Source: Candidatus Thorarchaeota archaeon
Lineage (GTDB): Archaea > Asgardarchaeota > Thorarchaeia > Thorarchaeales > Thorarchaeaceae
NCBI GenBank assembly: GCA_048882385.1
Contig: JBHLRQ010000011.1
Coordinates: 1 to 51,483 of the forward strand
Direction of reading: 5' to 3'
Length of the DNA: 51,483 nucleotides
Below, piece by piece: positions 16,658-32,568 of the stretch. The notes under the pieces were generated by a model. The model was not told where the DNA came from. It did no database searches and was given only the letters and a program-made list of their open reading frames with translations. Both the position numbers and the translations under genes were made by a program. The stretch's first letter is position 1. The number at the start of each line of letters is the position of its first letter.

Positions 16658-16787
16658 GAAATTCTGCGGTATAGAGACGAAGCTTCATAAGAGTTCACAC
16701 AAAAGAATTACGTGAAATGGGGTCCTCGGATCCTGTTCGATATTTCGTCTGCACAAGTCGTGTGTGGAAGGAAGGAGCAAGAAAGAA

Positions 16788-17624
16788 TTGCAATTTGTAA
16801 TAGATGAATACTTACTACTAATGTTGGTCATCGTGCTCGCGTTCTTCATTCTGATGTTTGTAGCTAGTGGGATAAAAGTCCTAAAAGAATGGGAGCGTGT
16901 TGCTGTGCTTAGGCTTGGGAAGTTCAAGCACATTCGAGGACCAGGTGTAATCTGGGTCACTCCAATTCTTGATAAAATTGCCATGAAGGTCTCTTTGAGG
17001 CTTCTTACATATGCTTTCAAGACAGAGAGATCACTAACTAAAGACAACGTTCCGGTCGTCGTTGACGCTGTTATGTACTTCAGAGTCATTGATGTTGAGA
17101 AAGCTATCCTTAGCGTCGAGAGATACACAGTAGCCGTAGAGCTTGGAGCACAGACAACACTGAGAGAAACAACTGGTAAAGTCACACTTGACGAGCTTCT
17201 TTCAGAGAGAGACAAGATTGCAGAACACCTTCAAGAGCTCATTGATGAGAAGACGGAGCACTGGGGTGTGAAAGTCACTAGTGTAGAGATACGTGATGTA
17301 GTTATTCCTGCAGCACTTCAGGATGCAATGAGCCGCGAAGCTCAAGCTGACAGAGAGGGAAGAGCCAGAATCATATTGGCTCAAGCAGAACTTGAAGCTG
17401 CTGAAAATATGTTGAAAGCAGCCAAAAGATACGAGGAGTCTCAAGTTGGTTTCGTATTACGTACATGGAACATTATGCAAGAGATTTCCAAGAATGCCAA
17501 CCTCATCATCATGGTCCCCACGAATATACCTGAGGTGGGCGTGACAACTGGAGTCGCGGCAGCTATGTCAGCTGGAACTGGTGGAATGCGAGTACCTCAA
17601 GATAAAGGAACGGTGAAAGAATAG
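16788..17624 (+). CDS. SPFH/band-7 (stomatin-like) protein
   Basis: EWERVAVLRLGK, LTKDNVPVVVDAV, AQTTLRE, WGVKVTSVEIRDV, AMSREAQADRE; TTG at 16788 after GGAG preferred to GTG at 16764. Confidence 0.93.
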   Translation: MQFVIDEYLLLMLVIVLAFFILMFVASGIKVLKEWERVAVLRLGKFKHIRGPGVIWVTPILDKIAMKVSLRLLTYAFKTERSLTKDNVPVVVDAVMYFRVIDVEKAILSVERYTVAVELGAQTTLRETTGKVTLDELLSERDKIAEHLQELIDEKTEHWGVKVTSVEIRDVVIPAALQDAMSREAQADREGRARIILAQAELEAAENMLKAAKRYEESQVGFVLRTWNIMQEISKNANLIIMVPTNIPEVGVTTGVAAAMSAGTGGMRVPQDKGTVKE

Positions 17625-17650
17625 ACATTCGGAAGTAGGATGAGAGAAAG

Positions 17651-18346
17651 ATGGATGCGTGGATTAAGATTCTGGTTGTCATGATCATGTTTTCAGCGAT
17701 TAGCATGGTAATGACATATGTTCTCATTGATCCATTCATTGGTCTGATTCTATTAGGTGTGCTTCTGACACTCCTTGTGCTCACACTGGAACCAGCAACA
17801 GGAAAAGCAATGGCACAAGTGACAGTACCCCTTGTGATTATACTGTTCGTGATGCAGGTATTCTTCAATCCGCTTTTCATATTCAATGATTGGATGCTTT
17901 TGATAATCGGATTAGTTCTCTATCTGATGTTCACGATTTTCACAGGTGGAAGTAGCTTCACAGAGGGGGGTTTCATTGATGCCAAAGTATCACTGAAACT
18001 ATTTCCTCTATATGGGGTGGCGATTTTTCTATCAGTACTTATCGATGAAACTCGTCAATTGACAGTCTACATTATGTCTGGTACTGTCTTTTGCTTGATG
18101 ATTCTTTATTTTGCATTCCTCAGGGACTATGACAAGTGGCCTACATATTCTCAATTCAAGTACTCTGACATACATGCCACCACTGACATCAATCCTAAGG
18201 GCAAAGTGAAAACAGGTGCTGAAATCTGGTGGGCAAAGACAACTGGACCTCCAATAAAAGCTGGAGAAAAAGTTGTCATTGAAGGAATAACGGGTATGAC
18301 AATGCTCGTTCGAAGGCCAGATGACATCTCAGTTTCAGATCAATAA
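17651..18346 (+). CDS. NfeD-like membrane protein (TM helices + C-terminal OB fold)
   Basis: INPKGKVKTGAEIWWAK...IKAGEKVVIEGITGMTMLVR; follows SPFH gene. Confidence 0.85.
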   Translation: MDAWIKILVVMIMFSAISMVMTYVLIDPFIGLILLGVLLTLLVLTLEPATGKAMAQVTVPLVIILFVMQVFFNPLFIFNDWMLLIIGLVLYLMFTIFTGGSSFTEGGFIDAKVSLKLFPLYGVAIFLSVLIDETRQLTVYIMSGTVFCLMILYFAFLRDYDKWPTYSQFKYSDIHATTDINPKGKVKTGAEIWWAKTTGPPIKAGEKVVIEGITGMTMLVRRPDDISVSDQ

Positions 18347-19386: not shown

Positions 19387-20538
19387 GTGAGTACAAGAAT
19401 AAGGAGCCTATTGCTGGAATTCGAAACAGACGAGGTTGGGAAACTAGCAAGAATGAATGTCAAAAACAAGACGGCATTGATCAAGGCGTTCTCCGATACT
19501 TCTGATATTGTAAGAGAACGAGCTCTAATCGCATCAATAGACCTTGCAGACCCCGAAGTAGTAACCGACGTGGCAAAGGCTCTAGACGATGATGTGACTG
19601 ACGTACGAATAGCTGCAGCACAATCTCTTGCTTTCTATCATCAACCTAGAACAATTCCAGTTCTATTCAAGGGACTCAAAGATGATAGTACTTGGGTCAG
19701 ATCTCATTGTGCAGTCGGACTATCTAAACTATTGAATGGACCAATTTGGGCACGACTTCCAACTGAAGATATTGACAAGTTTCTGGATGATTTCCCTGAG
19801 ATGGCAGAAGAAGAAATCAATAGATTTCTCTCAAGCATCAAAATGAATGCCTCCGCTATTGATCGATATATGAATTGGCGTGGTAAGGGATTTGATATCG
19901 AAATTGATGTGACCACTGTTGTTGAAGAGCTTGAAAGCGCACCAATTTTCCTGTCTGAGGAGGCAGTTGCATCTGTTGATGTTTCCAAACGAACAGGAGT
20001 TACTGACGAAGTTGAGGAGATCCTTAGTGAGCTTCCAGAAGAAATAATCTCCACCCTTCCACCTGAGGATATCAAAAGACTAACACCTGCATCAGCAAGA
20101 GAGCTTGTTCAAAAGCTAAAGGTATCAATTCCTTCTGCTGCACCAAAGAAGAAAAAGAAAGCTGTGAAAGTTCGTAAAGTCAAGAAGGTCAAAAAGAAAA
20201 AGAAACCCACTGAAATAGATGAACTGGTTGCGAAACTCCCTGCGGAAGTACGGAGTGAGATTGGAGATGAAACTCTCGCATCTTTGAGTGTAGAGGAACT
20301 AGAAGCATTGCTGGCATCGTCTCCGGAACCAGAAGAGCCGGAGCCGGAACCAGAACCAGAAGTTGAAGCACCTGATCCGAGGATGCAAACCTTCATTGAC
20401 AAATATGGAGAAGAGAAAGCACAGCTTCTAATCACTATTCCAGAAGTAATGCTGGAGGGTATTCCAGAGGAACAAATAGAGGAAATGGATCTAGAAACTT
20501 TGAAAGGTCTTACTCAAGCTCTAGAACCCCGAGAGTGA
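19387..20538 (+). CDS. HEAT-repeat (PBS-lyase type) protein with Lys-rich tract, (EP)n linker and acidic helical repeats
   Basis: LIKAFSDTSDIVRERA, ALDDDVTDVRIAAAQSL, GLKDDSTWVRSHCAVGL; PKKKKKAVKVRKVKKVKKKKKP; PEPEEPEPEPEPE; GGAGGAG RBS. Confidence 0.85.
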   Translation: MSTRIRSLLLEFETDEVGKLARMNVKNKTALIKAFSDTSDIVRERALIASIDLADPEVVTDVAKALDDDVTDVRIAAAQSLAFYHQPRTIPVLFKGLKDDSTWVRSHCAVGLSKLLNGPIWARLPTEDIDKFLDDFPEMAEEEINRFLSSIKMNASAIDRYMNWRGKGFDIEIDVTTVVEELESAPIFLSEEAVASVDVSKRTGVTDEVEEILSELPEEIISTLPPEDIKRLTPASARELVQKLKVSIPSAAPKKKKKAVKVRKVKKVKKKKKPTEIDELVAKLPAEVRSEIGDETLASLSVEELEALLASSPEPEEPEPEPEPEVEAPDPRMQTFIDKYGEEKAQLLITIPEVMLEGIPEEQIEEMDLETLKGLTQALEPRE

Positions 20539-20539
20539 C

Positions 20540-21844
20540 TTATTCAGCACCACGAATGACAACTGCGAACTCACCAGCTAATTTGCCATACCACTCAAGA
20601 AGATCTCGCATATTATCTACATGACGATAACTGCCATTTCCATATTGCGCGATAGCAAGCATTAGCTCTTCATCAATCTCACTTCTTTCACCAAGACCTA
20701 TTGAGTAAATTACGAGCTTGCTTCGGTCTGTGAATCGTTCTTTTAGGACCTTTAAAGGTGGAGGTCCAGAAGTGGTCATTCCATCTGTGAGCATAATTAA
20801 CATTGTGGGTTTGTTTGGGTCACCAAACTCTTCCATTATCTCATGTGCCTTCGCAAGAGCTGAGCCCATGTCTGTTAGTGTACCACCTTCTTCAACCTTG
20901 TCAACGACATGCGTGCTAATTATCTGAAGGCCCAGCGCTTTTTCACGTCCAGTACATTCAACAAAGGGTTGAACCTCGCCGGATTCTGAGTTTAGAAATG
21001 TCATCTCACTGACTTCTTTCTCAAAAGTAATGACACCGACCTTCTCTCCATAACCCCGACCGACTTTTTCAGCAAGATAGAGCAAGACTGCCATTGCTGC
21101 AGCTTCAGCTCTACTAACATTTCTCCCTTCCTCAAATCGGTTGAGAAAGGCATGAACTTCTGGACTATCGCCTGCGAGATCCTTCAATCCTTCCCGAGCG
21201 TGAGCGATATCCTGAACAGGAACATCTGTAGTTTTCATCGAACCGCTCGTATCAACGCATAAAACTGCATTGAAAGGAGAGGCGATTCCAACAGTCTTGA
21301 ATTGGTAGCCAGTTCGTTCTCGTAGAGCTTCGAAGGCTAGTTTGGCAAAGGTTTTTCCTGCCAACGGAGGCTTTGTGTTGATTATTTCAACCTTCACAGC
21401 CAACTCGGGCCAATTAAAAGACATTCCAGGATAGACAAGTCTGCCTCCAATAATGTTCTCAAGTGATTTTACCCGTTCTGCAGCTCTCGAAACAAGATCT
21501 TCGGTGTTAGCATCTTCTGCCAAGGGTTTGAGACCAAACTCTACGTATTCTAGCGCTAGCATATCCTCATCATAGAGGGTTGCTTCAACTTGATCGCCTT
21601 CCATAAGTAATGATGCTTCCAGAACTAATGTATCAATGACAATCTGGTCCTCAGACACCTCGTTGCTTTTTCTAATCTCTGCGGCACCCCAGAAGCTACT
21701 CTGTGGATCTTCAAATATTACAATTGATCCTATGTCTGCATCAAGTTTCTTTGCAGTTTTAGGATGAAGATTAGCAAATCCTCTAAGGTCTCCGCCGTCG
21801 ATTATCTCCAAGGATAGTTTCTTGGTGATGGCTTTTGCCTCCAT
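20540..21844 (-). CDS. CDC48/NSF N-domain-like + vWA (intact MIDAS) protein
   Basis: GFANLHPKTAKKLDADIGSIV...QIVID...GDQV (double-psi barrel pattern), GRLVYPG...VEIINTKP (CDC48_2-like), CVDTSGSM, TDMGSAL, MLTDG, YSIGLG. Confidence 0.8.
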   Translation of the reverse strand: MEAKAITKKLSLEIIDGGDLRGFANLHPKTAKKLDADIGSIVIFEDPQSSFWGAAEIRKSNEVSEDQIVIDTLVLEASLLMEGDQVEATLYDEDMLALEYVEFGLKPLAEDANTEDLVSRAAERVKSLENIIGGRLVYPGMSFNWPELAVKVEIINTKPPLAGKTFAKLAFEALRERTGYQFKTVGIASPFNAVLCVDTSGSMKTTDVPVQDIAHAREGLKDLAGDSPEVHAFLNRFEEGRNVSRAEAAAMAVLLYLAEKVGRGYGEKVGVITFEKEVSEMTFLNSESGEVQPFVECTGREKALGLQIISTHVVDKVEEGGTLTDMGSALAKAHEIMEEFGDPNKPTMLIMLTDGMTTSGPPPLKVLKERFTDRSKLVIYSIGLGERSEIDEELMLAIAQYGNGSYRHVDNMRDLLEWYGKLAGEFAVVIRGAE

Positions 21845-21897
21845 AGTGCTATAGAATGTAACTCTAATTCTGATGTTATAAAGAATTGTGAGTCCGC

Positions 21898-23382
21898 TTA
21901 TGCCAAAAGTCGAAGTAAGTGGGTTTGTAACTCTTGTGATGATTCTAGTGTTATTGAATGGTCAGACAAAGATTTCTGTAGTACGAGTCCAATTTTCTGA
22001 GATGCATTTTCCAACGTATCAAGCTGTATCATTCCTTGAGTTGTCAACACCGTGCAGCTAAGGAGATTTCCTGGACGCCGTCGTATCCAGATATGGTATT
22101 CTTTAGGTTCATCCTTTAATGTCAGTGTTAAAACATAAGATTCCTGATGAATTCCATTTTCCCTAGCGCTATCGACGGTTTTGGGCTCAGGCCAAGTCCC
22201 TATTGGAGGAATCATGTAATCAAGTGAACATAGGTCCCATGTTCCTTTTTTCATAAGGCTAATGATCATTTCTTCGACTTCTCGTTGTATTTTTCGAGAG
22301 GTGTCTAAACAGATCAATTCACTTGGTGTTCCACTTGAACCTTTTGAAGTCCTATATGGAGAACGTAGTAAAGAGAGTGTGTTTCCTCCTAGAATTTTCT
22401 GCGCATCACCTAAGGTTCCAGGAAAATCTCTTGAGAGCAGATACATGATTATATCAAGAGCTTGAACAGACAGATAACTAAAATCAGTACCAAAGAGTAA
22501 TTTTTGGGACCATAATCGTAACCTGTCGCTAGCAGTTTCAAATAGAACTGGAACGTCTCGATCATGCAAGGTAGAGGTTTCACCAAATATTAGTGGGTCC
22601 TTTAAAGCTTCATAGAGGCGCGAATCACCAGGAGACATTCCACAATGAGCAAGAATGACCTTCAAACCTCTTAGAGCATCCCCGCATTCAGGATCGTTGC
22701 GCATCGAATCCACGAGTCTTTTGATTCTAACAACAGTCTTCATATTTCGTGTATCAAAGATAATTGGTAGACCAAGTTCTCCAGCACGTTTTACAACATT
22801 TCTGGTTGCCTCACCTTCAATTGAGTCTATGAATAACTGGGCAAGGGGATGAAGTTTGAGTCCCCTTAATCCGAGATTCTTCACACTCCTTTCAAGTTCC
22901 TTTACTGCAGCATCTCCATCATCTAGTGGATTAACCCTGGAAAAACCAATGAGCCTGGTTGAGTGAGGTGCTCTGCTTGTCCATGAAGCAATTTTGTCAT
23001 TTGAAATCTTGAATGAAGGGACTCCAGGTTCCTCTGGCGATGAATAATCATCCGTGTATGGAAAAACAACAGTTCTGTCAACCAACCAACCATGGTCTAA
23101 GCGATTCCAACTGTTGCGGCTCTTAAAAACACGAGTGGCTAAATCAGGAGCCCTGACATTTACAGGTTCGAAAAGTAGTTGATCATCATCCATCATTTTT
23201 TGTGATTGTTTTTGAATCTCAAACCAAAGAGATGCATAAAAATCGTAAGCACCAGCAGGAGTGTTTTTGTGTCCTTTTTCAAGGCCCATATGATGATGAG
23301 TATCTACGATATAGATAAAGAACTCGTCATCCTTCTTTATGCCTCGATTTGGTTGATCTTCAACAGCCCGGACTACAAGCAT
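21898..23382 (-). CDS. Metal-dependent amidohydrolase (Amidohydro_2-like TIM barrel) with a C-terminal extra domain
   Basis: VDTHHH, RLIGFSRVNP, LGLRGLKLHP, AHCG, LLFGTDF, KILGGN. Confidence 0.88.
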   Translation of the reverse strand: MLVVRAVEDQPNRGIKKDDEFFIYIVDTHHHMGLEKGHKNTPAGAYDFYASLWFEIQKQSQKMMDDDQLLFEPVNVRAPDLATRVFKSRNSWNRLDHGWLVDRTVVFPYTDDYSSPEEPGVPSFKISNDKIASWTSRAPHSTRLIGFSRVNPLDDGDAAVKELERSVKNLGLRGLKLHPLAQLFIDSIEGEATRNVVKRAGELGLPIIFDTRNMKTVVRIKRLVDSMRNDPECGDALRGLKVILAHCGMSPGDSRLYEALKDPLIFGETSTLHDRDVPVLFETASDRLRLWSQKLLFGTDFSYLSVQALDIIMYLLSRDFPGTLGDAQKILGGNTLSLLRSPYRTSKGSSGTPSELICLDTSRKIQREVEEMIISLMKKGTWDLCSLDYMIPPIGTWPEPKTVDSARENGIHQESYVLTLTLKDEPKEYHIWIRRRPGNLLSCTVLTTQGMIQLDTLENASQKIGLVLQKSLSDHSITLESSQELQTHLLRLLA

Positions 23383-23500
23383 GAATGAATTTCGTTATAT
23401 TTGTGTGATAAACTATTGCTTCAACTCAAGGTAGAAGTCAGCATTATGCATATATCAGCTACTGTCAACATTTTGCTAGTAAGCTCTGGAGCCCTGAAGG

Positions 23501-26158
23501 ATGATAGTTGTTGAAGACATTGAAGCAAATGAAATTCATCGCTTCGTTGTTATTGACACGTCATTGCAACTTGGTATCGTTAGAGCAGGGCAGGATATAC
23601 GAACTTTTGACCCAGACCGTGCGTTTTCATTCTATAATATGGTCGATAACCAGCTTAATGATTTTGCATCAGTGTACCCAGGTGCATTCAGGTATCTTCC
23701 AAGAAGAGCATATGACTATCTTCGAAAACCGCGTCTTCTGAGTGAGTTCTATCACGGATCTACTGCTACATCAGAATCAAGTTGGATAGCAGACTACCTT
23801 GTAGTTAAACCACTAATCAATCTTGGAGATACAGCCCTTCCAGTATTGCAGCAGGAAACGAATGCAAAATCAATCCACAGATGGGCTACAGTTCCACCTC
23901 ATAGTCCAAGATTATATCATCTTCAAGATATGAGACAGGGTCGTAGATCAGAGCAGGGATGGGGGTGCGTATTGCGGACAAATGATCTTCCAGTTGCTCT
24001 AAAAGGACCAAACAGAACAGATTTGCTAGACTACATCAAAACGAACAAGCCAATCTTCATTGAACTAGGTCCTAGTGATGAGCTAGATCCGTTGTTGGAA
24101 TGGCTGGTTCTCTTGAAGCAGGCGGGTTTGAAGACTCCGAATCTTGTTTTGGGGGCTAAGAATCACAAAGCATGGGGTAAGAACATAACTCGACTTCTTG
24201 ATGTCCCAGGAAGCAAGGTCTTGACATCCGGCGCGACCATATCTTCATTATCGACTCTTGTACGTCATATGCGAAAGACCCAAAGTGATGCAAACTGGTC
24301 AAAGAGATTAATATTCTCCTCAGCATATCCTGAAACTCAATTTGGCGACAGTATTTCAGAGATATTCAGTTATCTATTAAGCAGGAATTTAGCTGCAGAA
24401 CCGGAGGAAATACAGCGAATTCTAGGGGGCAATTTTCTAGCAATCACACCTCCTCGTCCTGCATTCCTTCAATATGATGAAAACAAGACATCCGTTGTTG
24501 CCGAGGAAAGCCTGGGAAAAGCAGCTATGAATGAGCTTGCAAGAATACTTCAGCTTCTGGATGCTCGAAAAAAACTTGGAATAGTATCGCTTGATCATAT
24601 GGTTGAAAATGATGGAGGAAGGATCTATCTGGATAGTTGTGTCCTAACACTAAAGAGTTCCAACTCACCCAACGCAATAAGTCTCGCTTTGTTACTTGAA
24701 AAGAATGGTTCTGTAATGTTTTCAGGATGGAAAAAAGCATTCTCAGAAAGTCTTCTTTCTAGAGACGGAATTCTTCTCGCAACACTGGTCCGTGCAAATG
24801 CCAAACTAGAAGGACCAATTTACGGTTCTCCAGCACACCTGACCCGTTTTAATCAAGCCCTCCTCACCTGTCTTCACGTGGACAAACCAAAGGAGGTGCT
24901 GTCAGCTCTTCATTTTGGTGTTGAGATTGCAAAATCTGAACCAGGTATATTCTTCATGTGCGAGAGCGATATGAAAGCGCTTGAGGTTTCAAGTGGGGAC
25001 TATCTTCTTGCTTTAGATGTCAATACTGGTCAATGGTGTACAGGCGTAACCAAAAAACATCCTCGTTGTGGTGAACGGTCAATAGTAGTTTCTGAATCTG
25101 ATGCATTTCTCTTCGGATTTCAAAATTCGACCATTGTGAATCTGGTTAGATATGAAGGAGAAATCACTGAAATCAAGGAAGCTGTATTCTCATACTATTC
25201 ACCTCAGCCATCAAGCAATGCCGAGTTGGCATCATTCATGCATTTGCATGAGAATCAAATTCGAGATTCTATAAAAGGTGTACTTGTGGGGGTTGATACT
25301 AGGCTGAATGTGGGACGAAATGAAAGCAAAGTTTCGATGAGAGTCAAGCATTCAAAACCTCAATTGCTTCCTGGGCAGGTTGGAAGAATAACTGATATTG
25401 GAACAGATTTCAAGCCCCATCAATCCTTCAGTGATTTCAATATAATTCTCTGTATCTCAAAAGGAATGAAGATGAAGACAAAGGATGTTTCTTTAAAAAC
25501 ACTGCAAACCGCCAAGACACAATTGAAACCCTTAGTAAGAATCGTTCCAGAACTTGAAACATTTCTTGATGGAATAAAAAGGACTTCATCAAGATCACAG
25601 ATTGCAGCATTGGCAGCTCTTATGATTGTAAACATGCTGATACACAATCGAACTGAAGGAAGATTAGCGCTTGTGACCTTCAATGAAATTCCAGAGAAAT
25701 TCTCTATCCAAAGAGGAAAGGAAGTACAATCTTTCATTGAATTCTACGAAGACCTTCAATCAGAAGAAGTCCTAATTTCATTGATTTACTCAATTATTGA
25801 TGCTGTTGAGGGAGTTGAAGGATTTGAGAACATGGCTGGAGCTTACCGCTCGATAGCAGAATACCTTGAAGACTTTGGACCAGAACGTCCAACAATAGCA
25901 CTCGTATTCAGTAACGGAGCTGGTTCCTTTGATGAGGAGCATATCTCGTTTCTTCGAGCGATATCAAAACAAGACCGGTACCGACTTGACATTCTAACCC
26001 TTGGGAAGAATGGAAACCAGAAATCTAGCCTCAGATTACTAAAAGGGCTGCATTCAAATTTGATTCCAATTGAAACGTTCTCAGCCTATACTTTTACAGG
26101 TTACTTTCTGGATTTAATTGAAAATCTTGTACCCAGAACTACAAGCCACCAGTCCTAA
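23501..26158 (+). CDS. Multidomain pseudoenzyme: degenerate amidohydrolase + accessory domain + CDC48-N-like + degenerate vWA
   Basis: Collinear similarity to the two divergent neighbours: YLLSRNL..EIQRILGGN vs YLLSRDF..DAQKILGGN; FNIILCISKGMKMKTKDV vs FNAVLCVDTSGSMKTTDV; SRSQIAALA vs SRAEAAAMA. Confidence 0.8.
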   Translation: MIVVEDIEANEIHRFVVIDTSLQLGIVRAGQDIRTFDPDRAFSFYNMVDNQLNDFASVYPGAFRYLPRRAYDYLRKPRLLSEFYHGSTATSESSWIADYLVVKPLINLGDTALPVLQQETNAKSIHRWATVPPHSPRLYHLQDMRQGRRSEQGWGCVLRTNDLPVALKGPNRTDLLDYIKTNKPIFIELGPSDELDPLLEWLVLLKQAGLKTPNLVLGAKNHKAWGKNITRLLDVPGSKVLTSGATISSLSTLVRHMRKTQSDANWSKRLIFSSAYPETQFGDSISEIFSYLLSRNLAAEPEEIQRILGGNFLAITPPRPAFLQYDENKTSVVAEESLGKAAMNELARILQLLDARKKLGIVSLDHMVENDGGRIYLDSCVLTLKSSNSPNAISLALLLEKNGSVMFSGWKKAFSESLLSRDGILLATLVRANAKLEGPIYGSPAHLTRFNQALLTCLHVDKPKEVLSALHFGVEIAKSEPGIFFMCESDMKALEVSSGDYLLALDVNTGQWCTGVTKKHPRCGERSIVVSESDAFLFGFQNSTIVNLVRYEGEITEIKEAVFSYYSPQPSSNAELASFMHLHENQIRDSIKGVLVGVDTRLNVGRNESKVSMRVKHSKPQLLPGQVGRITDIGTDFKPHQSFSDFNIILCISKGMKMKTKDVSLKTLQTAKTQLKPLVRIVPELETFLDGIKRTSSRSQIAALAALMIVNMLIHNRTEGRLALVTFNEIPEKFSIQRGKEVQSFIEFYEDLQSEEVLISLIYSIIDAVEGVEGFENMAGAYRSIAEYLEDFGPERPTIALVFSNGAGSFDEEHISFLRAISKQDRYRLDILTLGKNGNQKSSLRLLKGLHSNLIPIETFSAYTFTGYFLDLIENLVPRTTSHQS

Positions 26159-26412: not shown

Positions 26413-27582
26413 TCACCTGGAAGTACTAATCTTCTTAATCCGTTGCTCAAGCTCCAGTAATCTTTTCGTTAGTATTTCGATTCTATCAATATTTTCAGCA
26501 AGTCGGGTTTGTAATGCATCAAGGCTGCCTTTTTCGACAGTAGATGAACCTGATGTTGTATCGAATTTTGACTCTAAAACATCTAAACGTTTTTCAAAAT
26601 CAGAAAGACTCAATTTATCCAATCGACTTCTTAGAGATTCAAGACTCCTTTTCACATCATCTGAACTAAGCTCTTCTCTAGTAGATGCTGCCTTTTTTGG
26701 TTCTTGACTAACTCTAGCTTCTAGAACAACCTCTCTCATCTTTTTTGGTGGTCGAAAACTATCTCCAGGCACCATCCAGATTGGGACAAGATATTTTCTG
26801 GAGATCTCTTCAAGACCAACACCCGTGATACTCGCAAATGCGGCTATTCTTTGTGGCGAATCCCAGAAGCACACATCGATAATACCATCCTTAACAAAGA
26901 CACAAGCCACAATAGCAGATCGTATTCCTCTAAATAATTCAAGACCAGTAATCCATCGAGTAAGGAGAGCAGAGAAAATTGGGAGGTCTTTTGATGAGCC
27001 ATGGCGAATCAGGAGATCCTCAGAAGATCCTTCTTGAACAATAGCCTTGATCCACTCAGTCATTTTGGTACTCGCCTTTGGCAATGATAGCACTAAGACA
27101 TCATTCACAAGTTTCTCGTTCGTATCCATCCTCAACTGTTCTACATAATCGAGATTAGGCTCAACAAAACTCTTTGATACGTTCTTTCCAAGCCCATACT
27201 CAAGAAGAAATCGAATGATTTCAAGAGGTGATTGATTCTGAACTTGGAATGCAATGATAGACTGTGAATTCTTTTTTCCCAAGACCATAGCTACAAACTT
27301 GCTTTCAGTGAGACCCTTAGGACCTATTACAAGAATATTTGCAGCTCCGGGCGAACTCATATCTCTGACTAGTCTTGCAAACCTGTCTGCAGGTATAACT
27401 AGTGATTCTTGATTGTGTTTGTCACGAAGTTTTCCTTTCATACCCATTGAAAGAATACCTTGCTCAATCCATCCAGTCTTCATTGAATCTTCAGGAAGTT
27501 TGGAATAGATATATCCAGAAACTTCACCACTGTGATAAAGGGCTTGAAGTCTGGTCGATAGATCTTTACTAATCGATATCAC
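26413..27582 (-). CDS. Hypothetical protein, alpha/beta N-terminal region plus C-terminal coiled coil
   Basis: 389-aa ORF overlapping the upstream gene end; heptads in the last ~85 aa. Confidence 0.8.
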   Translation of the reverse strand: MISISKDLSTRLQALYHSGEVSGYIYSKLPEDSMKTGWIEQGILSMGMKGKLRDKHNQESLVIPADRFARLVRDMSSPGAANILVIGPKGLTESKFVAMVLGKKNSQSIIAFQVQNQSPLEIIRFLLEYGLGKNVSKSFVEPNLDYVEQLRMDTNEKLVNDVLVLSLPKASTKMTEWIKAIVQEGSSEDLLIRHGSSKDLPIFSALLTRWITGLELFRGIRSAIVACVFVKDGIIDVCFWDSPQRIAAFASITGVGLEEISRKYLVPIWMVPGDSFRPPKKMREVVLEARVSQEPKKAASTREELSSDDVKRSLESLRSRLDKLSLSDFEKRLDVLESKFDTTSGSSTVEKGSLDALQTRLAENIDRIEILTKRLLELEQRIKKISTSR

Positions 27583-28718: not shown

Positions 28719-29861
28719 TCAATGAATTCGAGTATTGTAGATTTGTGTTGCAACCGAGCGTGATCCATAAAAGACCTCTACTCGCAAGTTTGCTTTCCCC
28801 TTTGTATCAGTCATTGGGATGAAGCTAAGTTCTAGTTTGCGATCAGAATTTGGACTTATTTGATGATGTTCATTCGTAACCTCAGAAACTCCATCTGAGG
28901 TGACTAGTGACGCAATGACTCTAATTCCAACAACTGCGGCACTAGGATTCTTTACTCGTATATAGTAGTTGAATGCTTTACCAGCCACAATGTTGTTGGG
29001 TATCTCTCCCAAGTTTACAATCAAGTCTAACTGAGAGGTCGACAAAGGTTTCCCCTTGGGCCAACGAGATATTCTTCCGAGTTCTAGGAGACGCGAGAGT
29101 GATGTCTTCAATTCCCTCAATTCTAGCGATAGCTTTGAAGCAGCATCACCCAAGTCAAAGACTCCGTCATTCGCTTCGTAGTATGAGAGCACCTTTCTGT
29201 CAGCTTCGATGAGATCACTAACTCCTTCTAGTATCTGCATTATTGCCTCTGGAAGCTCATGTGCTTCCAACAATGAGTAGTACTTGCCTTCCTCAACAGC
29301 AGAGGCTATTTTCCTGAATGAATCTTCAACAAGGGGATTGCAACCACAAACAAATACAAACATCGTACTTCCATACTCTTTGCGAAATTGCTGAACTTCA
29401 GCTATGGGGTCATGACCTTTTGGACATCCTTCAGGAAAATAGTCATCGCTAATGCTATTGTAATTGCGACCATGTGGCGGAGCATCACCCACTAACAAGA
29501 GTACCTTGTAGGAATCTCGTTCCCATGACAGCTTTGTACGTGCATCGAATAGCCCATCAGCAACAGCCTCCGGAGTATCGCCACCTTCAGAAGGGTTTAG
29601 CGACGATATGAGTTTGTGAACGCTTTTGATCTTTGGTGAGAAATCAAAGACTTTGGTTACATACGATCGATCTTGAGGAGGATGATCACGATAGGACACA
29701 ATTCCAAACCGAATCTCAAGACTTTCTGTTTTACGCGATATATGGTCAACAATTTCAAAGAGACTATTCCTGACTGCTTGGATATCATCCTTCATTGAAC
29801 CAGTTGTATCTACAACAAATGCTACGTCTAGTTTGGTGGAGGCCAGCCTAATCCACTCCAA
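28719..29861 (-). CDS. vWA domain (intact MIDAS, vwkA-like subtype) + winged helix + Ig-like domain
   Basis: LDVAFVVDTTGSM, YRDHPPQD, GGDTPEAVADGL, GDAPPHG, FPEGCP; wHTH DLGDAASKLSLELRELKTSLSRLLELGRI; beta-rich tail; start may be CTG at 29846. Confidence 0.88.
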   Translation of the reverse strand: MEWIRLASTKLDVAFVVDTTGSMKDDIQAVRNSLFEIVDHISRKTESLEIRFGIVSYRDHPPQDRSYVTKVFDFSPKIKSVHKLISSLNPSEGGDTPEAVADGLFDARTKLSWERDSYKVLLLVGDAPPHGRNYNSISDDYFPEGCPKGHDPIAEVQQFRKEYGSTMFVFVCGCNPLVEDSFRKIASAVEEGKYYSLLEAHELPEAIMQILEGVSDLIEADRKVLSYYEANDGVFDLGDAASKLSLELRELKTSLSRLLELGRISRWPKGKPLSTSQLDLIVNLGEIPNNIVAGKAFNYYIRVKNPSAAVVGIRVIASLVTSDGVSEVTNEHHQISPNSDRKLELSFIPMTDTKGKANLRVEVFYGSRSVATQIYNTRIH

Positions 29862-30896: not shown

Positions 30897-31236
30897 CTAT
30901 GCACCCCACTGAAATCCGGCGGCTTGCTCAAAAGAGCACACTTCCATCATATTTATCGTGCCCCGTATATATGGGTTTGTAATTTCCATATTATACGCGT
31001 CCGTCCCGATTTATCGAACGTATTACTGACATACTACATTTTAAGGAATCTAGTAAAATCGCCCGAGTATCTTTCGAAAAATGAAAATCAGCATTATTCG
31101 TCACAGTCTCCGATAATTCGTAGCGGATATTGAAGAAATAGTCCCTACACATCCTTATGACTAGACCAGACATTTTTTAACGTGGAAGAAAAGTCGAGGC
31201 TTTAAATCCGCCCTGTATTTTGGAGTGGAGATATCG

Positions 31237-32568
31237 ATGAGTAAGAAAAAAGTAATAATCATGGGAGCAGCTGGTCGCGATTTCCATAATTTCAACACGT
31301 ATTTCCGCGACAATGAAGACTATGAGGTTGTTGCATTCACAGCCGAACAGATTCCAGGAATCGGTGACAGAATGTACCCACCAGAGCTCTCGGGCCCACT
31401 CTATCCGAAGGGAATCAAAATCTATCCGGAAGAAAAATTGCCCGAACTCATCAAAGAATTTGAAGTTGAACAATGCATTCTTGCATATTCTGATCTTCCA
31501 TACGAGGTGGTTGGTAATAAGATTGCTTGGGTAAATAGCTTAGGTCCAGATCTTCGCCTGATGGGTCCAGATCTAACAATGATAAAGAGTTCCAAGCCAG
31601 TTGTTGCAATCTGCGCGGTCAGAACAGGTTGTGGTAAGAGTCAGACATCAAGACGTGTTAATCAGATTCTCGTTGATATGGGATTAAAGCCGGTCAATAT
31701 CAGACATCCGATGCCATATGACCCAGATCTAACTACCCAGATTGCACAGAGGTACGAGAAGCTTGAGGATTTGGACATGTATCGTTGTACAATTGAAGAA
31801 AGAGAAGAGTATGAGCCTATGATAAACATGGGTGTCATCCTTTATGCAGGAGTTGACTATGGCAAGATTCTCGAGCAAGCTGAAAAAGAAGCAGATGTCA
31901 TTACATGGGATGGAGGAAACAACGACTTTCCATTTTACAAGCCAGACCTTTTAATCGTCATTACGGATCCTCATCGTCCTGGCCATGAAATCTCATACTA
32001 CCCTGGTGAAACTAATCTCAGGATGGCAGATGTCGTGGTGATCAACAAGATTGACACTGCAGATTATGATGATGTAGAAGAGGTCAGAGAGAACATTATG
32101 TTTACAAATAGCAGGGCAATGATTGTGGATGCTGCATCTCCACTCACTATCGAGAACATGGAAATGATCAGAGGTAAGCGAGTCATAGTTGTTGAAGATG
32201 GTCCAACTGTTACGCACGGTGACATGCCATATGGTGCAGGCTACATTGCAGCAAGAAAAGCTGGTGCAATAATTGTCGACCCACGACCATTCGCAGTTGG
32301 AAGTATCAAAGTCACTTTTGAGAAGTATCCACATCTCGAAGATGTCTTACCTGCAATGGGCTATGGTAAGAAACAGATGGATGAGCTTCAGCAGACAATA
32401 AACAAGTCAGATGTGGAGGCAATTGTCATTGGTACTCCCATTGACCTTAATCGAGTTGTAAAGATTGACAAACCAAATGTCAGAGTCAAGTATGACCTTC
32501 AAGAAATTGGCAGACCCAATCTTGAAGACGTTTTGAAGGAGTTTGTCAAAAAACATAATCTGAAGTAG
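31237..32568 (+). CDS. COG2403-type P-loop protein (cyclic 2,3-diphosphoglycerate synthetase-like; arginine synthetase ArcE-like)
   Basis: MGAAGRDFHNFN, AVRTGCGKSQ, RHPMPY, TIEEREEYEP, WDGGNND, VEDGPTVTHG, LPAMGY. Confidence 0.85.
   Translation: MSKKKVIIMGAAGRDFHNFNTYFRDNEDYEVVAFTAEQIPGIGDRMYPPELSGPLYPKGIKIYPEEKLPELIKEFEVEQCILAYSDLPYEVVGNKIAWVNSLGPDLRLMGPDLTMIKSSKPVVAICAVRTGCGKSQTSRRVNQILVDMGLKPVNIRHPMPYDPDLTTQIAQRYEKLEDLDMYRCTIEEREEYEPMINMGVILYAGVDYGKILEQAEKEADVITWDGGNNDFPFYKPDLLIVITDPHRPGHEISYYPGETNLRMADVVVINKIDTADYDDVEEVRENIMFTNSRAMIVDAASPLTIENMEMIRGKRVIVVEDGPTVTHGDMPYGAGYIAARKAGAIIVDPRPFAVGSIKVTFEKYPHLEDVLPAMGYGKKQMDELQQTINKSDVEAIVIGTPIDLNRVVKIDKPNVRVKYDLQEIGRPNLEDVLKEFVKKHNLK

Follow-up and report, generated by a model that had tools for sequence, protein, structure and literature searches.

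A fused paralogue of an amidohydrolase and a Cdc48N-vWA protein that has lost both metal sites is kept by selection in Thorarchaeota

The DNA analysed here is a stretch of 51,483 nucleotides from a Candidatus Thorarchaeota archaeon (the window; contig C11 of a metagenome-assembled genome, or MAG, of 3.7 Mb that is 95% complete). It encodes a protein of 885 amino acids, P0001, which is essentially an end-to-end fused paralogue of two proteins encoded beside it: an amidohydrolase (P0002) and a Cdc48N-vWA protein (P0003). Both folds and the order of the domains are kept. The metal ligands of both domains are gone, the gene is under strong purifying selection, and it persists in relatives from which the two free genes have been deleted. 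We lean, with moderate confidence, towards P0001 being a non-catalytic binding or scaffold protein that has its own role, independent of the active pair.

The two free proteins match non-overlapping parts of P0001 in the same order, which is the pattern known as a Rosetta stone (928 amino acids for the pair versus 885 for the fusion). To quantify the match we used alignments of 40 fused proteins (A1), 20 hydrolases (A2) and 19 Cdc48N-vWA proteins (A3). In hhalign, whose scores may be inflated because 4 of the 40 proteins in A1 are distant fused members nearer the active enzymes, the N-terminal half of the fused family aligns to the amidohydrolases with a probability of 99.8 (E = 4.5e-30, 379 columns, P0001 1-395 to P0002 1-431). 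The C-terminal half aligns to the Cdc48N-vWA proteins with a probability of 100 (E = 4.4e-38, 395 columns, P0001 463-860 to P0003 3-412). Since these alignments cover residues 1-395 and 463-860 of P0001, the fusion is essentially end to end. Single-sequence BLASTP values are independent of the composition of A1. They join P0001 492-835 to P0003 32-383 (E = 6e-17, 25% identity) and P0001 266-315 to P0002 291-338 (E = 1e-5), the latter match being weak taken alone.

A preliminary description of this DNA had paired short motifs of P0001 with motifs of its neighbours by eye, and had called the gene an inverted, fused and inactivated copy of the neighbouring operon. All of the quoted motif pairs are aligned in the hhalign outputs, and the profile alignments are significant for both halves. 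Coordinates and hhalign also agree that the fused protein keeps the gene order of the free pair and is transcribed divergently from it over 118 nt. "Copy" is correct in the sense of paralogy; it is wrong in the sense of a recent copy, as the trees described below point to an old paralogue.

The AlphaFold2 model of P0001 is confident (predicted local distance difference test, pLDDT, 86.5; predicted template modelling score, pTM, 0.77). Its N-terminal domain is a (beta/alpha)8 barrel and its C-terminal domain has the Rossmann-like vWA fold. Between them lies the two-lobed Cdc48 N-domain fold, a double-psi barrel plus a beta barrel, which is seen in the models of both P0001 and P0003. Foldseek matches the P0001 model to the p97 N domain in 4kdi_B (target TM-score, TMt, 0.63) and 3qq7 (TMt 0.58). 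The pTM of the free two-domain protein is 0.59, and the gap to the fused model is a weak hint of defined packing in P0001. Sequence families hardly reach the fused protein: P0001 has no Pfam family at E<=1, Amidohydro_2 is matched in only one of the 40 fused members (E = 0.0097), and NCBIfam gave no family for the six proteins scanned.

That all metal ligands of both domains are lost had been proposed from the window, and the alignments bear this out. For the barrel we examined the Amidohydro_2 set (HxH on strand 1, one His each on strands 5 and 6, Asp on strand 8), and for the vWA domain the metal-ion-dependent adhesion site, or MIDAS, with the motif DxSxS...T...D. In the free hydrolases D27, H29, H31, H178, H246 and D300 are invariant (20/20). 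The counterparts of the last five in P0001 are S21, Q23, R159, A219 and A275. Likewise, the MIDAS residues D198, S200, S202, T324 and D354 are invariant in all 19 free vWA proteins and have become S653, G655, K657, E776 and N805 in P0001. We infer that P0001 neither hydrolyses a substrate nor binds a MIDAS metal.

The loss extends to every fused member examined. None of the 40 members has Asp at the position of Asp300, and the residues that stand in for the four His and the strand-8 Asp differ from one member to another. Asp stands at the first MIDAS position in two of the 40, both of which lack the third. The full ligand set is equally absent from 27 further full-length fused representatives, among which P0253 retains only HxH and P0286 only DxSxS, and from five members checked separately.

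Selection nonetheless keeps the gene open. Orthologues of the fused gene are present in all 24 genomes of the same genus; 22 of them are a single open frame and two are cut by contig ends. In 21 of 21 genus copies the fused, hydrolase and vWA genes are all open, and the fused gene has no internal stops. We calculated ratios of nonsynonymous to synonymous substitution rates (dN/dS) after Nei and Gojobori, retaining only pairs with dS below 2 from a total of 210 pairs. The median for the fused gene is 0.076 (range 0.05-0.14, 24 pairs), compared to 0.086 for the active hydrolase (0.065-0.124, 24 pairs); the vWA protein is at 0.019 (0.005-0.039, 18 pairs). Medians for the four domains of the fused protein lie between 0.084 (middle domain) and 0.114 (Cdc48N-like module). 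All four domains of P0001 are thus under purifying selection as strong as that on the active enzyme. The idea that an intact and deeply diverged frame is kept by selection therefore stood up, with no relaxed selection, frameshifts or stops seen among the orthologues.

The fused gene is also old. When 301 genomes of the phylum were scanned by profile, full-length fused matches appeared in five GTDB families (f1, f2, f6, f7 and f19), and all five hold the free pair in the same genome, within about 14 kb in f6, f7 and f19. Against 1.84 billion representative proteins, the fused profile gave 165 matches at E<=1e-3 and 42 at E<=1e-30. In a tree of the N-terminal half, a quick and unrooted one with long branches flagged, fused and free sequences of the same genomes are split by a branch with a Shimodaira-Hasegawa-like approximate likelihood ratio (SH-aLRT) support of 99. 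In the more careful tree of the C-terminal half, the free proteins form a clade with support of 98/98, and the family of P0224, a third Cdc48N-vWA paralogue in the window, forms one with 100/100. The trees and the spread over five families place the duplication before these families split.

Relatives provide a natural deletion experiment. Three genomes (G080, G041 and G042; 97, 98 and 95% complete) carry an intact fused gene of 874, 862 and 886 amino acids, respectively, with no internal stops. The sequences are 28-35% identical, at which distance synonymous sites are saturated. Searches of these genomes found no free vWA gene (A3 at E<=1e-3 returned nothing or the fused gene only) and no hydrolase of 500 amino acids (A2 at E<=1e-10). 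At their loci the gene of a HEAT-repeat protein stands directly beside the fused gene, followed by an E2F-like gene, and the pair is cleanly gone from between the same flanks. In a fourth genome (G251) a fused gene of 889 amino acids lies beside a hydrolase remnant of 73 residues. The congeners G100 and G245 retain the trio. In the other direction, orthologues of the free vWA protein (E = 1e-102 to 1e-114) occur in families f9, f22, f24 and f27, for which no full-length fused match is listed. Hence, the fused gene and the pair are separable in both directions.

Because relatives keep an intact fused gene after the pair has been deleted, we read its function as independent of the pair. The preliminary description had P0001 kept as a structural or regulatory subunit. 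Being kept by selection is right; being an obligate subunit of the pair does not fit the four genomes that retain the fused gene without it. If P0001 is a non-catalytic binding or scaffold protein, it would most likely still recognise partners or ligands like those of its ancestors. The barrel pocket, the Cdc48N groove and the vWA face would be the recognition surfaces, and what they bind would be held or presented without turnover. The best candidate partner may be the HEAT-repeat protein, because loss of the pair leaves its gene next to the fused gene. Synteny of this gene extends from all 20 genus loci to L034, and it adjoins the fused gene in L061, L062 and L063.

Several observations weigh against this reading. 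In the tree of the C-terminal half, the fused side is supported as one group by only 54/17, and both trees are unrooted with long branches. The fused-profile score is 825 bits in G080 versus 991 in its congener G100, and 720 bits in G041 versus 1190 in its congener G245. Because scores drop in genomes without the pair, part of the constraint on the fused gene may have come from the pair. The absence of the pair rests on MAGs that are 95-98% complete, though the deletion lies inside intact contigs. Finally, four polar residues of the barrel, D19, D98, N121 and N311, are invariant in all 40 fused members and correspond to D27, D102, N128 and N334 of the active family, so P0001 may retain some chemistry.

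Alternatively, the active hydrolase, the Cdc48N-vWA protein and P0001 could build one complex in which P0001 is an obligate subunit, structural or regulatory, by analogy to dead paralogues that complete an oligomer. All 20 genus loci have the genes head to head over a conserved region of 118 nt, which would suit such a complex, as would the presence of the free pair in the same genome in all five fused-gene families and the faster divergence of fused genes where the pair is lost. However, three genomes have an intact fused gene without the pair, and one more has it beside remnants only. Nor does the complex explain the four families with a free vWA orthologue and no full-length fused match listed. 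We consider this alternative unlikely.

The direction of the event could also be reversed. In that case the fused form would be ancestral and the two free genes would have arisen by fission, so that the pair is the copy. The unrooted trees allow this, and the vestiges in deep fused members (HxH in P0253, DxSxS in P0286) would fit. Furthermore, L014 and L030 have both free genes in one frame, interrupted by a single TAG, which puts the two states one mutation apart. However, more families have the free vWA orthologue than have the fused form, the intact sites belong to the free genes, and in L057 a ligase gene stands between the two free genes. Fission strikes us as distinctly improbable.

Could P0001 still be an enzyme? 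Its active site would then be a new one in the barrel that works without metal, or one assembled from the residues that were left invariant. D19, D98, N121 and N311 are common to the active family, and at least one Amidohydro_2 enzyme, LigI, works without metal. However, LigI retains its His and Asp residues, whereas in the fused family the four His and the strand-8 Asp have given way to variable residues, and the shared invariant residues are equally explained as structural. A remaining activity is very unlikely in our view. A decaying pseudogene or an annotation artefact, which the lack of a Pfam or NCBIfam match could suggest, has a negligible chance of being correct, as none of the 21 copies has a broken frame, dN/dS is 0.05-0.14, the gene still spans about 870 codons and stays open at 28-35% identity, and the structure model is confident.

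Keeping dead paralogues as scaffolds is a known kind of evolution. Our preferred reading of P0001 as a non-catalytic protein with its own role adds a case that differs in three ways. Two unrelated metal sites have been lost in one chain, the active versions lie next door as separate genes, and the dead form outlives the live pair in a natural deletion experiment. It thus offers a clean system for what a pseudoenzyme does alone.

The fusion also bears on the active proteins. The preliminary description took it as strong evidence that the amidohydrolase and the Cdc48N-vWA protein work together physically. That they act together is supported, and we rate the Rosetta-stone evidence for it as fair: besides the fusion, all 20 genus loci have the free genes side by side, the hydrolase adjoins the free vWA gene in seven of eight genes examined (L034-L040 and L055), and both are missing at one site in three relatives. 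A physical pair of the free hydrolase and the free Cdc48N-vWA protein would be implied by the fusion.

This pair probably acts with a third protein, the giant GCS2-type ligase P0227, in which case the three could serve as writer of an amide bond (the ligase), eraser (the hydrolase) and adaptor (the Cdc48N-vWA protein). In L035 and L040 a homologue of P0227 (E = 1e-125 and 2e-122, respectively) adjoins the free pair. In L057 the homologue lies inside an operon in the order hydrolase, ligase and vWA. Ligase homologues beside or inside the pair are found in families f6, f7 and f22. The ligase was not found in G041 and G042, is shortened in G080 and bears a stop in G251; as far as these loci tell, its loss or damage tends to accompany that of the pair. 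With the Cdc48N-vWA adaptor, the giant GCS2 ligase and the HEAT protein, the hydrolase forms an uncharacterised set. We see this set here only in Asgard archaea, which among archaea are the closest relatives of eukaryotes. In the literature, supplements being outside the search, we found no description of Asgard vWA-amidohydrolase or vWA-Cdc48 proteins.

The features of the locus are collected in Table 1. P0002 and P0001 are divergently transcribed, with P0003 downstream of P0002. Within the 118-nt region between P0001 and P0002, an alignment of 13 loci shows two conserved blocks, GTGATAAAnTATTGC and GCAyTAtGCATATATC, which are probably back-to-back promoters of the TATA type. All eight loci read conserve a further TATA-like block, TTCTTTATAAC, in the spacer that separates the hydrolase gene from the vWA gene. 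Because of this block, the two free genes may be two transcription units, and the word "operon", used for them in the preliminary description, is uncertain.

Table 1. Positions of the fused gene, its domains and the neighbouring features in the window
Feature	Positions	Strand	Remarks
P0227, giant GCS2/YbdK-type carboxylate-amine ligase with Ig-like repeats, 1148 aa	9633-13079	+	Pfam GCS2, 25.1 bits (cut-off 21)
HEAT-repeat protein	19387-20538	+	Pfam HEAT_2; its end is 1 nt away from that of the vWA gene
Cdc48N-vWA protein (P0003, 434 aa)	20540-21844	-	Pfam VWA_2; complete MIDAS site, extreme conservation
Spacer between P0002 and P0003, 53 nt	21845-21897	-	Conserved TATA-like block TTCTTTATAAC
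Active-looking Amidohydro_2 enzyme (P0002, 494 aa)	21898-23382	-	Pfam PF04909, E 3.1e-13; extra C-terminal domain
Divergent intergenic region, 118 nt	23383-23500	.	Between P0001 and P0002; two conserved blocks
Fused pseudoenzyme gene (P0001, 885 aa)	23501-26158	+	Open reading frame coordinates agree with the preliminary description
P0001 residues 1-325, amidohydrolase-fold TIM barrel without metal ligands	23501-24475	+	
P0001 residues 326-470, alpha/beta middle domain, counterpart of the free hydrolase's C-terminal domain	24476-24910	+	hhalign to 395/431; secondary structure of the model
P0001 residues 471-640, Cdc48/p97 N-domain-like module and linker	24911-25420	+	hhalign; Foldseek
P0001 residues 641-885, vWA fold without MIDAS site	25421-26158	+	
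P0224, third Cdc48N-vWA paralogue, MIDAS site lost, 399 aa	27569-28768	-	hhalign

A second candidate for a fused frame was the free pair itself, which appeared as frames of 950-972 amino acids in six relatives. We rejected it, as stops lie between the genes in all eight loci read. Transfer RNA and Rfam scans of the window gave no matches.

Two further neighbours recur near the fused gene. A Band7/SPFH gene (16764-18346, + strand) lies in the window together with an NfeD gene, and a Band7 homologue adjoins the fused gene in L035 and L038. A protein of 447 amino acids (31225-32568, + strand) has a weak match to CobW/HypB/UreG-type GTPases (E = 2.7e-4). Its identity across the family is 77-88%, and its gene always lies a few genes from the fused gene, including the loci without the pair.

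Among the closest known systems are the Amidohydro_2 enzymes (PF04909), metal-dependent TIM barrels such as 3cjp_A, 4dlf and LigW2 (4qs5_A) in the PDB. In contrast to them, P0001 lacks the HxH, the two further His and the Asp, and is fused to three more domains. A PDB sequence search with the hydrolase profile returned only 3nur_A (E = 4.9e-4) and 3s4t_A (E = 7e-4). Inactive dihydroorotase-like proteins and domains are structural parts of pyrimidine-synthesis complexes, and CRMP/dihydropyrimidinase-like proteins are comparable. Like P0001, these barrels of the amidohydrolase superfamily have lost their metal ligands, and they persist for binding or scaffolding, the role proposed here for P0001. 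However, they belong to another branch of the superfamily, whereas P0001 lost two unrelated metal sites in one chain and has active paralogues next door. For the vWA half, proteasome Rpn10 and p44/Ssl1 of TFIIH are docking modules without a working MIDAS. They have no sequence-family link to P0001, and the Cdc48N and barrel context is different.

The N domain of Cdc48, p97 and VAT shares the double-psi-barrel type of fold with P0003. P97 N domains match at TMt 0.70-0.75 and a root-mean-square deviation (rmsd) of 3.5-4.2, and 5x4l_B at TMt 0.75 and rmsd 3.6. In sequence searches VAT-N matches by profile at E = 0.02, and Pfam CDC48_N has no match in P0001 or P0003 and reaches 31.4 bits in the L056 orthologue, below the cut-off of 35.1. 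In Cdc48/p97 the N domain is followed by AAA+, whereas here a vWA domain follows and there is no AAA+. For P0003 the ESM Atlas returned vWA clusters of a generic kind only.

In Foldseek the P0003 model is matched best by GATOR1/SEACIT entries: 9v0j_C (E = 2.3e-12, query TM-score, TMq, 0.40, 424 columns), 9xzy (E = 4.5e-11) and 8ae6_W. Entries of this kind also top the list for the P0001 model. Only 9xzy, the "DEPDC5 dimer", has DEPDC5 in its title; we infer that the other chains are DEPDC5/Iml1 as well. DEPDC5/Iml1 is the core of GATOR1, a eukaryotic nutrient-signalling complex. Its N-terminal half (NTD and SABA) has a Cdc48N-like domain and then a domain like vWA or the Sec23 trunk, an order that may correspond to that of the Cdc48N-vWA proteins. 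A review likens the NTD to the N domain of Sec18/NSF and SABA to Sec23 (PMC8534245).

We treat this resemblance as a lead only. The p97 N-D1 region matches the P0003 model nearly as well (E = 1.5e-11, TMq 0.31), and by rigid-body Z-score DEPDC5 is not among the 50 matches listed, with the vWA domain looking like any classical vWA. P0001 and P0003 also end after the vWA domain, whereas DEPDC5 continues with SHEN, DEP and C-terminal domains. In the whole genome Pfam IML1 (PF12257) has no match at E<=10 and NPR2 (PF06218) none at E<=1; Gtr1_RagA-like GTPases have 12 matches in the genome, none of them on the window contig. NPRL2-like proteins are reported in most Thor MAGs in a preprint passage that names no DEPDC5 homologue (10.1101/2020.10.19.343400). 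A literature search on DEPDC5 in Asgard archaea, again with supplements outside its reach, found nothing that describes the fused protein or the pair.

A bolder proposal would make the free Cdc48N-vWA protein an archaeal relative of the NTD-SABA half of DEPDC5/Iml1. With the ligase and the amidohydrolase it would form the writer, eraser and adaptor of an Asgard-specific amide modification, and P0001 and P0224 would be its non-catalytic readers or scaffolds. We regard this proposal as distinctly improbable. If true, the fold resemblance would bear on the origin of nutrient signalling.

P0224 aligns to A3 with an hhalign probability of 98.9 (E = 1.5e-17) and is present in 19 of 20 genus loci. 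It sits in a conserved row of three genes, together with a coiled-coil protein without known family (26413-27582) and a MIDAS-bearing vWA_4 protein (28719-29861). This row is also missing from the three loci without the pair. P0225 has no recognisable family, and the ESM Atlas gave nothing usable for it; P0226 is a vWA protein with a MIDAS site.

The start of the Cdc48N-vWA gene is unusual. We surveyed the window gene (20540-21844, - strand) and its orthologues in L014-L033. Fourteen of 21 genus copies have no ATG, GTG or TTG upstream of the conserved A-I-T-K-K-L, and one further copy is unscored. In the sequences read, a block of the GGAGG type (mostly AGGAGG) precedes the ATC of I-T-K-K by about 7-9 nt, and the annotated ATG of the window gene overlaps its GGAGG. 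This suggests that the gene uses a non-canonical ATC, ATA or ATT start.

At the same end of the protein, orthologues from f9 and f24 (L058 5180-7345, L059 5037-7331 and L060 6070-8208) have about 300-350 extra residues with weak matches to CDC48_N or Molydop_binding-type barrels, possibly a tandem barrel module.

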